Positions 42,845 through 45,067 of a stretch of DNA of 64,000 nucleotides are shown in pieces. A program made the translations under genes and the position numbers. The stretch lies in NCBI RefSeq assembly GCF_003334385.1, contig NZ_QOWN01000003.1, one strand, 5' to 3'. The stretch's first letter is position 1, and the number at the start of each line of letters is the position of its first letter. Source of the DNA: Escherichia coli. Lineage in GTDB: Bacteria; Pseudomonadota; Gammaproteobacteria; Enterobacterales; Enterobacteriaceae. The notes under the pieces are model-generated. The model did no database searches and was not told the origin of the DNA. It was given only the letters and a program-made list of their open reading frames with translations.

Positions 42845-45067
42845 TTAGTCCTCGTTTACAACCTTCTGCTGGGCGGCTTTTTTGGCCTGAGCGCGGGCAA
42901 TAGCCGCGGCAACTGCCGCTTTGCGCGGATCAACCTGTTCTTCTGGTACCGCATTAGCCTGTTGCTGTTCCAGCTTGCGTGCTTTGGCGCGTGCAATAGC
43001 CGCTTCGACGGCAGCTTTGCGCGGATCAACCTGTTCTTCTGGCTCCGCATTAGCCGGTTGCTGTTCCCGTTTGCGCGCTTTGGCTCGGGCAATAGCGGCT
43101 TCGACGGCGGCTTTGCGCGGATCGACCTGTTGTTCTGGCTCGGCATTAGCCTGTTGCTGTTCCAGCTTGCGTGCTTTGGCACGGGCAATAGCGGCTTCGA
43201 CGGCGGCTTTGCGCGGATCGACCTGTTCTTCTGGTTCCGCATTAGCCTGTTGCTGTTCCAGCTTGCGCGCTTTGGCACGGGCAATAGCGGCTTCGACGGC
43301 GGCTTTGCGCGGATCGACCTGTTGTTCTGGTTCCGCATTAGCCTGTTGCTGTTCCAGCTTGCGCGCTTTGGCGCGGGCGATAGCTGCTTCAACGGCAGTT
43401 TTACGTGGATCAGCAACGGTTGCTGCGTCGTTAGTTTGCTGCAGTTCTGCCTGTTTCGCTCTGGCTTGCGCTTTACGGGCTTCCCGTGCTGCAATAATTG
43501 CACTGTTATCCGGGCGTTCGCCCGCTTTAATCACAATAGGCTGTGTAGCCTGGGCCTGTTTCTCTTTCACCCGCGCCAGAGCGGCAGCAATCGCATCTTT
43601 ATCTTTGGCTGCAGGTTGAACGGCTGCGCTCTTATGTCGTTCAAGGCGAGCCGCTTTTTCGCGCTCCAGACGAGCCTGGCGCGCTTCGAAACGCGCTTTG
43701 GCTTCTGCGGCGCGCTTTTCTTCCTGACGAATAGCCGCAATTTCAGCTTTTTCCTGACGGAAATATTGCACCAGGGGAATATTGCTCGGGCAAACCCACG
43801 CGCAAGCCCCACATTCAATGCAATCAGCAATGTTATGCGTGGTAGCTTTATCGTGTTGCTGACCTTTGCTGAACCAGTACAACTGTTGCGGCAAAAGATC
43901 CGCAGGGCAGGCGTCAGCACAGGCGCTACACCGGATGCAGCTTTGTTCTTCCTGTGGTTCGCCAAGTTCATTGGCAGAGGGAGCCAACAGACAGTTGGTA
44001 ATCTTTACGACCGGGACATCCAGCCATGGCAAGGTAAAGCCCATTAGCGGGCCACCCATAATCACCATTTGATCGGCAGAGGGGCAGAATCCGGCATCAT
44101 TCAATAAATGACGCACTGGCGTCCCCAGCCGTGCCCAGACGTTGCCCGGGCGAGCGATTGCTTCGCCAGTCAGGGTTACAACACGCTCGGTAATCGGCTC
44201 GCCATCAATAACGGCACGTTTCACTGCATAAGCAGTGCCGACGTTTTGCATTAATACGCCGATATCGGATGAACGCCCGCCATGTGGAACCTGCTTCCCG
44301 GTCAGAATGTAGGTTAATTGTTTAGCACCGCCAGAAGGATATTTGGTTGGAATCACCCGCAGAGAAATATCGTTAGAGTCCGCCAGCACCGCGCGCAGCA
44401 TGGAAATCGCCTGCGGTTTGTTATCTTCAATGCCGATAAGAATTTCGCGTGGCTGCAGAATATGCGCAAGAATGCGAATACCCTCTACGACCTGAGCCGC
44501 GCAATCCTGCATCAAACGGTCATCGGCGGTAATGTACGGCTCGCACTCAGCCGCGTTGATAATCAACGTTTCAATCTTATCTCCGCCACCCTGCAATTTA
44601 ACGCCTGTCGGGAATCCTGCACCGCCCAGCCCGGCAACACCAAACTGATGTATGCGCTCGATTAACTCTTCGCGACTGCGAGTGCGATAATCGGCCCAGC
44701 CGTCGCGCGGGATCCAGCAGTCTTCACCATCGGCATCAATAATCACGCTTAATTCAGCTAAAGCTGAAGGATGAGCCGTAGAGTGGGGCGCAATAGCCGT
44801 AACGGTACCCGAGGTGGGCGCGTGAACAGGCAGCATTTTGCCGCGACCACGGGTAAGCGGCTGGCCGCGCAATACTTTATCGCCGACGCTAACGCACAAC
44901 TCACCTTCAGCGCCAATATGCTGTTTCAGTGGAATAACAAAACGCTGCGCCAGGGGTACCTGGCGCAGGGGTGTACCGTTGGACTGGGTTTTCATCTCCG
45001 GTGGATGGATGCCGCCGTTGAAATCCCAGATTTTATTTTTTCTGAATGCAGAGAATAACTTAAGCAT
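42845..45067 (-). CDS. rsxC: Rnf/Rsx complex subunit C with C-terminal 32-aa tandem repeats
   Basis: 740 aa; two CxxCxxCxxxCP ferredoxin motifs; C-terminus has about 5.5 copies of a 32-residue unit. Confidence 0.9.
42880..43415 (-). repeat. rsxC: in-frame 96-bp tandem repeat array (about 5.5 copies) in the 3' part of rsxC
   Basis: CTTTGCGCGGATC recurs at 42921, 43017, 43113, 43209 and 43305 (period 96 bp); encodes [32 protein letters not shown] units. Confidence 0.9.

Follow-up and report, generated by a model that had tools for sequence, protein, structure and literature searches.

Conserved helical units of variable copy number form the C-terminal tail of Escherichia coli RsxC, a putative docking array

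Repeat polymorphism in rsxC is already on record for two enterobacteria. In Escherichia coli, Jothi et al. (BMC Genomics 2026; PMC13185298) reported a 32-residue unit beginning with DPRK, present in 4 to 7 copies in 83 genomes and ending in one of the variable motifs QQV, EQV, EPV, EQI, or EKV, and used it as a genotyping marker. In Erwinia amylovora, Ham and Park (Sci Rep 2023; PMC10587187) described a 40-residue unit that starts at residue 553 of RsxC and occurs in 0 to 5 copies. Neither study addresses function, and the latter contains no analysis of conservation or selection; we likewise found nothing in the literature searched on the function of this tail or on interaction partners of RsxC, the cytoplasmic NAD(P)H/FMN/two-[4Fe-4S] subunit of the Rnf-type RsxABCDGE complex. 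Here, we analyzed the rsxC array in a 64,000-nt stretch of E. coli DNA (contig NZ_QOWN01000003.1; hereafter, the window). The unit is the one reported by Jothi et al., and to their description we add a range of 1 to 8 units from a search that found the gene in 5,425 genomes, an in-register DNA breakpoint, a selection analysis, and conservation of the unit core across bacterial orders. We found that each unit carries a predicted helix on which purifying selection acts more strongly than on the catalytic domain, and we tentatively read the tail as a multivalent docking array for a putative partner.

The rsxC gene occupies positions 42845..45067 on the (−) strand of the window (an open reading frame [ORF] of 740 codons plus stop) and is 100% identical to the annotated rsxC of E. 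coli K-12 MG1655, on which basis we assign the window to K-12. The array lies at the 3′ end of the gene, which agrees with the gene and position assigned by an earlier, sequence-only reading of this DNA. Tandem Repeats Finder reported a single array at 42891..43412 with a period of 96 bp, 5.4 copies, 91% matches, 0% indels, and a score of 813. The fraction of identical bases at a lag of 96 was 0.911, compared with a mean of 0.269 and a maximum of 0.386 at lags that are not multiples of 96, and with a mean of 0.274 and a maximum of 0.347 in 1,000 shuffles; the periodicity thus showed no sign of the collapse that the sequence-only reading had named as evidence against itself. The same lag analysis saw no 96-bp periodicity elsewhere in the window. 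The interval originally proposed (42880–43415) located the array and was about 10 bases too wide at its low end.

The repeat follows the coding register (32 × 3 = 96), with units arranged head-to-tail and in frame. Specifically, five full 32-residue units lie at 42932..43411 on the (−) strand, starting at residues 553, 585, 617, 649, and 681 (43316–43411, 43220–43315, 43124–43219, 43028–43123, and 42932–43027, respectively), followed by a diverged terminal unit of 28 residues (713–740) at 42848..42931 (−). Every unit, the terminal one included, begins with DPRK, and each full unit consists of a core starting DPRK(A/T) and a spacer reading (L/R)EQQ(Q/P)ANA(E/V)PE(E/Q)QV. The composition of the array (29% Ala, 13% Gln, 12% Glu, 10% Lys, and 10% Arg) bears out its earlier description as a 32-residue unit rich in Ala, Lys, Glu, and Gln. 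Calling the units nearly identical is somewhat overstated: the five full ones show 85–96% pairwise DNA identity, and the terminal unit is only 59–63% identical to them. The array is, therefore, a protein-coding minisatellite, i.e., an in-frame variable number tandem repeat at the 3′ end of rsxC.

Next, we took the rsxC genes of 80 Enterobacteriaceae species, each represented by a single genome, and aligned their 334 units on the DPRK start. The array starts at residues 549–564 in 79 of the 80 loci, the remaining locus being cut by a contig end before the array, and has a period of 30–48 residues, mostly in 2 to 7 copies. Each unit resolves into an 18-residue basic core and a spacer of 12–30 residues whose sequence is free to differ between genera. 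Conservation is at least 80% at every core position and at least 97% at most of them, the seven alanines included; the exceptions, positions 8, 14, 15, and 17, are those that define the terminal-unit variant. In E. amylovora RsxC, the array starts at residue 553, as in E. coli, and the core differs by a single conservative change; the unit is longer (40 residues) and has an Ala/Pro-rich, less acidic spacer.

Counts by the method of Nei and Gojobori gave, for the core compared between species, a proportion of synonymous differences (pS) of 0.63 and of nonsynonymous differences (pN) of 0.0115 (pN/pS 0.018). For codons 21–400 of the same genes, the corresponding values were 0.64 and 0.072 (pN/pS 0.113), so that purifying selection is about six times tighter on the core than on the catalytic domain. 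Among the units of the K-12 array itself, core pS was 0.35 and pN 0.01 (pN/pS 0.03), and since a third of the synonymous sites have diverged while the peptide has been kept, the units are not recent copies of one another. The segment is, therefore, more than the low-complexity sequence of its earlier description, given that the 18-residue core is nearly invariant. Because the helix core has been kept almost unchanged across many bacteria, we take the tail to have a function. By the same token, it is very unlikely that the tail is a neutral, functionless expansion tolerated at the C terminus. Such an expansion would account for the tolerance of 1 to 8 copies in E. coli and 0 to 5 in E. amylovora, for the lack of a Pfam family for the tail, and for the solved Rnf complexes that do without the array, but it is at odds with a core pN/pS of 0.018 at a near-saturated pS of 0.63, with retention of the core across gammaproteobacterial orders while the spacers change, and with a sign of spacer charge that is preserved in 248/248 units.

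The units also share a charge pattern. The core carries a net charge of +4 in 244 of 248 units, while the spacer is net negative in all 248 internal units, contains proline in 221 of them, and has lysine at just 0.6% of its residues. Each unit thus comprises a +4 helix followed by a flexible tether of roughly −3, and the 188-residue K-12 array has a net charge of only +7. A basic core of +4, in Ala/Lys-rich sequence that resembles histone-H1-like tails, raises the question of whether the helices bind DNA non-specifically and tether the Rsx complex to the nucleoid, bringing it to DNA-bound SoxR, a [2Fe-2S] protein that receives its electrons from membrane-bound Rsx (PMC12174285). We consider such a nucleic-acid tether quite unlikely: non-specific binding would require no invariant Ala, Val, or Ile, and within each unit the acidic spacer almost offsets the positive charge of the core. 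Basic helices in a membrane-associated complex could also, in principle, be amphipathic anchors that hold RsxC to anionic phospholipids. The core helix, however, has a mean hydrophobicity of −0.38 and a hydrophobic moment of 0.22 (Eisenberg scale), with no aromatic or leucine-rich face, and the solved structures show arms of RnfD keeping RnfC at the membrane (PMC9588780), all of which makes an anchoring role scarcely credible. As a candidate class, the membrane-targeting amphipathic helix was rejected on its hydrophobic moment and on Val and Ile being the sole large hydrophobic residues.

We then considered the predicted structure of the tail. In an AlphaFold2 model of the single chain, built from an 86-sequence alignment with a mean predicted local distance difference test score (pLDDT) of 86.7, the Fe-S domain is followed directly by a long, charged single helix rich in Glu, Arg, Lys, and Ala (residues 432–483; 43619..43774, [−] strand; pLDDT > 95), which precedes the repeats and lies outside the array. 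Two further helices, residues 490–506 and 522–547 (43427..43600, [−] strand), are degenerate, non-periodic relatives of the repeat helix, with weak matches to a hidden Markov model (HMM) of the core at 490–501 and 529–534 and a low-confidence loop between them; this region (490–547) is conserved in 80/80 Enterobacteriaceae loci. Within the array, the model places one helix of ~19–26 residues in each full unit (554–576, 587–608, 618–640, 650–668, and 682–704), and pLDDT falls below 50 at the proline-containing junctions (578–585, 609–616, 641–648, 670–680, and 704–711).

All solved RnfC chains end before the array: that of Azotobacter vinelandii (8ahx) at 496 residues, that of C. tetanomorphum (7zc6) at 435, and that of A. 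woodii (9eri) at 443. The A. vinelandii chain (8ahx_C) aligns to residues 15–498 of E. coli RsxC, and its C-terminal long helix is homologous to residues ~432–483, the stretch that leads into the E. coli repeat tail; lacking DPRK units, this structure is silent on the array itself. In A. vinelandii, the long helix, whose role is not understood, touches RnfB and RnfH (PMC12174285). If its E. coli homologue is placed likewise, the repeat tail would emerge from this helix near the RsxB side of the complex.

Alanines that are invariant on every face of a helix, as in tight helix-helix packing, together with alternating blocks of +4 and −3 that could zip electrostatically, would also suit an element that packs on itself as a bundle, solenoid, or stalk, within one tail or between complexes, with its size set by copy number. 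Solenoid or toroid repeats have indeed been proposed for the E. amylovora protein (PMC10587187). We regard self-packing as unlikely, however, since pLDDT is below 50 at every junction, with no confident higher-order arrangement, the spacers span 12–30 residues in a single family and reach ~100 elsewhere, which fits a solenoid poorly, and the core offers only two larger hydrophobic residues (Val and Ile), with the low hydrophobicity and moment given above.

The sequence-only reading had called the array a linker. No domain follows it, and rsxD begins immediately after the stop codon; the array is, therefore, a C-terminal tail, and neither in this respect nor in its core pN/pS does it behave as an inter-domain low-complexity linker. 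Spacers of similar composition and predicted flexibility are found in the flexible, Ala/Pro/Glu-rich E2 chain linkers of 2-oxo-acid dehydrogenases and in the helical Ala/Lys/Glu domain II of TolA, which are repetitive, charged, Ala-rich segments whose length varies between species. Those segments join folded domains or span a compartment, whereas in RsxC the array ends the protein and every unit contains a strictly conserved 18-residue motif. Tandem ubiquitin-interacting motifs, in which repeated single helices with conserved alanines are separated by flexible spacers and bind multivalently, offer another analogy, and no more than that, since the RsxC core does not match their consensus sequence. 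RnfH, which in A. vinelandii touches the neighboring RnfC helix, is a ubiquitin-like beta-grasp protein.

To follow the motif beyond Enterobacteriaceae, we searched 1.84 billion representative proteins and inspected the best 150, clustered at 50% identity. Many gammaproteobacterial RnfC proteins are 600–1,250 residues long, and 40 of the best 150 representatives contain 1–11 core-like motifs at spacings of 22–119 residues. The core HMM matched proteins of Erwinia, Pseudoalteromonas, Celerinatantimonas, Haemophilus influenzae, and Aeromonas, while Salinimonas, Paraferrimonas, and Ferrimonas have visibly related repeats that fall below the HMM threshold. RnfC of the Oceanospirillales type (Balneatrix, Neptuniibacter) carries repeats of ~100 residues built on the related motif LKALKTAAAVARTKLKK. 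Long RnfC proteins of this kind (P0141, P0148, P0152, and P0167, from Balneatrix, Neptuniibacter, and others; up to 1,246 residues) show the ~100-residue repeat around LKALKTAAAVARTKLKKAEKAL. These longer repeats may be distant relatives of the enterobacterial core. Because lengths differ within single clusters of 90% identity (820–890 residues in Pseudoalteromonas and 773–1,013 in Erwinia), copy-number polymorphism is general. Outside RnfC, the motif has few matches, all of them chimeras (an array interrupted by IS1, and fusions of RsxC to YnfH/DmsC or Mfd), from which we conclude that it is RnfC-specific. The chimeric proteins that end in RsxC units (P0017, P0026, P0031, and P0110) comprise one with an IS1 transposase fragment (E. 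coli), two with a DmsC (PF04976) N terminus, and one with TRCF (PF03461, Mfd-like), and suggest that insertions, or large deletions with one end in the array, occasionally occur, or else that these sequences were misassembled.

The sequence-only reading had also expected copy number to differ between strains. We compared rsxC by megablast with 5,426 complete E. coli genomes and found the gene in 5,425, of which 60, taken at even steps down the ranking, served as a census; at least one record per length class was fetched and translated, and DPRK units, the terminal one included, were counted in the 11 fetched alleles plus K-12. Six units (740–742 residues; K-12 and Nissle) were the most common state (~58% of the 60), followed by five (708–709 residues, ~20%), seven (772 residues, O157:H7, ~10%), and eight (806 residues, ~8%), with three units (644 residues) and one unit (580 residues, strain 1105) at ~2% each. 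Copy number is thus not invariant, which had been named as the outcome that would speak against variation. All 11 fetched alleles, like K-12, keep the reading frame and lack internal stops. Lengths of 2,229, 2,130, and 2,421 bp do not differ from K-12 by whole multiples of 96 because of an extra Gln codon in a QQQ run, a nested trinucleotide slip that yields 33-residue units (L004, L007, L009, and L011).

Individual alleles show how units come and go. The allele of strain EC24 (L001) is the K-12 gene minus exactly 96 bp, with one mismatch in 2,127 bp, upstream of the array, and its breakpoint may lie anywhere in gene positions 1695–1743, where a 48-bp tract is exact in units 1 and 2. Between neighboring K-12 units, identical in-register tracts reach 48 bp, and the longest exact match at a lag of 96 is 55 bp. 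Removing 288 bp from K-12 reproduces the three-unit allele with 6 mismatches, and in the one-unit allele (L005), which has lost all internal units, unit 1 (DPRKT…) and the terminal unit are joined into a hybrid. Whole units are, therefore, gained and lost in register. They would be exchanged through homology-dependent misalignment, by unequal recombination or replication slippage, in such a way that each event keeps the frame and leaves a hybrid unit at the junction; as to the enzymatic route, both a RecA-dependent pathway and slippage are conceivable.

A locus of this kind invites comparison with contingency loci, at which rapid and reversible copy change would tune the SoxRS response, virulence, or resistance. 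Correlations of copy number with virulence genes (rho 0.32) and with antimicrobial resistance genes (rho −0.28) have been reported among 83 strains (PMC13185298), a line derived from ATCC25922 carries a non-frameshift deletion in rsxC (PMC7696260), and K-12 and EC24 are separated by one unit plus one single-nucleotide polymorphism. Against this stands the finding that copy number follows clonal lineages rather than behaving as a hypermutable switch. Specifically, in Table 2 of the 83-genome study (PMC13185298), all genomes of sequence type (ST) 11 have 7 units (R7a) and all or nearly all of ST21 have 6 (R6a), i.e., copy number tracks multilocus sequence type. Since ST11 and ST21 dominate those 83 genomes, the reported correlations are probably confounded by phylogeny. 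In addition, the units are 96 bp long, whereas contingency loci typically have units of 1–9 bp, every change preserves the frame, which leaves no room for on/off switching, and many unrelated isolates, as well as K-12 derivatives, carry an rsxC identical to that of K-12 in the megablast comparison. We consequently judge an adaptive contingency role highly improbable. The candidate of a phase-variable switch was rejected on its 96-bp unit, the preservation of frame, and the uniform copy number within ST11 and within ST21.

Repeat length also affects how rsxC appears in sequence databases. Seven of the 80 species loci (L017, L023, L036, L067, L083, L086, and L090) end in or just before the array at a contig end, and a protein search with the repeat (P0002–P0120) returned mostly short RsxC entries, many labeled "partial." Evidently, short-read assemblies break or collapse at the repeat, and rsxC length in draft genomes is unreliable. 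In strain 1105 (NZ_CP023388.1; L005 1201–2943), the annotation pipeline PGAP calls the gene a pseudogene ("incomplete; missing C-terminus"), yet its ORF is intact to the VVNED stop.

Of the readings considered, the one we find most likely, though tentatively, is that the tail is a specific, multivalent docking array. The core helix would dock a conserved partner, either a redox partner or another subunit of the complex near the RsxB side, the acidic spacers would serve as charge-compensating flexible tethers, and copy number would tune avidity or reach without on/off switching. We favor a specific structured interface over generic electrostatics because all faces of the helix, the alanines included, are conserved, and multivalency because the motif is repeated and 1 to 8 copies are tolerated. 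The location of the tail, following a helix that in A. vinelandii contacts RnfB and RnfH, suggests a partner near the ferredoxin-side module. More broadly, the 18-residue core, DP(R/K)KAAV(E/A)AAIARAKA(R/K)K, may be a previously undescribed, order-spanning docking motif of gammaproteobacterial RnfC/RsxC that has been amplified independently in many lineages and recruits a conserved partner at the RnfB side, a proposal we put forward with some reserve. Candidates for that partner are the protein that physiologically accepts or donates the electrons, a beta-grasp protein resembling RnfH, and SoxR.

Several points weigh against docking. Our computations identified no partner. The repeat helices are modeled with only moderate confidence (block mean pLDDT roughly 65–90), and a single-chain model carries no packing information. 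The copy-number ranges in E. coli (1–8) and E. amylovora (0–5; PMC10587187) imply a weak dosage constraint, and the one-unit allele may be a real minimal form or the product of a collapsed assembly. Finally, the Rnf complexes of C. tetanomorphum, A. woodii, and A. vinelandii function without an array, which is, therefore, dispensable for core catalysis. On balance, we place the explanation as a whole at a probability of roughly 0.7; its genetic and structural description is near-certain, while docking is a tentative assignment that we hold with distinctly less assurance.

The rest of the protein and its surroundings are those of an RnfC/RsxC subunit of Rnf-type ion-translocating oxidoreductases. 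Pfam families RnfC_N (residues 14–115, a barrel-sandwich domain), Complex1_51K (139–283, a NuoF-like FMN/NAD(P)H-binding domain), SLBB (296–344), and Fer4 (373–430) were all found, the last being a two-cluster ferredoxin domain with two CxxCxxCxxxCP motifs whose cysteines are invariant in the 86-sequence alignment. The NCBIfam models NF003454 (RsxC equivalog; 868 bits, cutoff 345) and TIGR01945 (rnfC; 597 bits, cutoff 246) end at residues 570 and 445, respectively, and no Pfam family extends past residue 445. When the tail sequence was searched against the PDB, it gave chance-level matches only (E ≥ 0.05). The gene sits in an rsxABCDGE operon: its next neighbors downstream, in the same orientation, are the rsxD and rsxG ORFs, and rsxA, rsxB, rsxD, and rsxG are annotated around the E. 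coli orthologues.

The end of the array may be shaped by its neighbor. The rsxD ORF (41786..42844, [−] strand) has its ATG one base after the rsxC stop codon (42845–42847), the junction reading AAC GAG GAC TAA and then ATG (TAAATG; 42842–42856, [−] strand). A GAGGA at 42849..42853 (−), 6–10 bases upstream of the ATG, is likely the Shine-Dalgarno sequence of rsxD, judging from its sequence and spacing. The extreme C terminus of RsxC would then be a dual-purpose sequence, and the last codons of the terminal unit would be constrained twice over. The terminal-unit variant closes the array in almost all of the Enterobacteriaceae examined, and the ribosome-binding constraint of rsxD may help explain why it has never been homogenized with the internal units and keeps its …VVNE(D/E) ending.

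As the sequence-only reading had anticipated, the array also generates long spurious antisense ORFs. Stop codons are absent from four of the six frames across the array, and because a frame that is open in one unit remains open through all units, the stop-free repeat holds open (+)-strand ORFs of 435 codons (42740..44047) and 232 codons (42921..43619), to which we add one of 215 codons in an alternative frame of the (−) strand (42856..43503). At the other end of the gene, rsxC has been reported to contain a weak NusA-dependent intrinsic terminator located 16 nt past a PPE motif, with read-through relying on EF-P-assisted coupling of transcription and translation (PMC5021804). The corresponding motif (IHPPE, codons 20–24) lies at about 44990–45010 (−) in the window. 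Among reported rsxC mutations, I525F lies upstream of the array and was judged null or neutral by its authors (PMC4759930), the non-frameshift deletion in the laboratory-evolved ATCC25922 line is given without a position in the text (PMC7696260), and a further mutation from an evolution experiment is mentioned without detail (PMC12196164).

The repeat polymorphism itself is ordinary, with mainly practical consequences: it breaks short-read assemblies and yields many "partial RsxC" entries, annotation pipelines call short rsxC alleles pseudogenes, and the repeat creates long false ORFs. What is new here is a deeply conserved, constrained helix in each unit, absent from all solved Rnf structures and from the Pfam and NCBIfam models searched, which is more conserved than the catalytic domain and is repeated up to 11 times in some bacteria. 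Why a complex coupled to the membrane potential reduces SoxR, and what the physiological partner of Rsx is, remain open questions (PMC12174285), and the function of the tail should be of moderate interest to the Rnf/Rsx field. A conserved docking motif beside the RsxB side would offer an experimental handle on that partner, and, if the docking reading is true, copy number would set the avidity of capture and so link a typing marker to Rnf/Rsx physiology.

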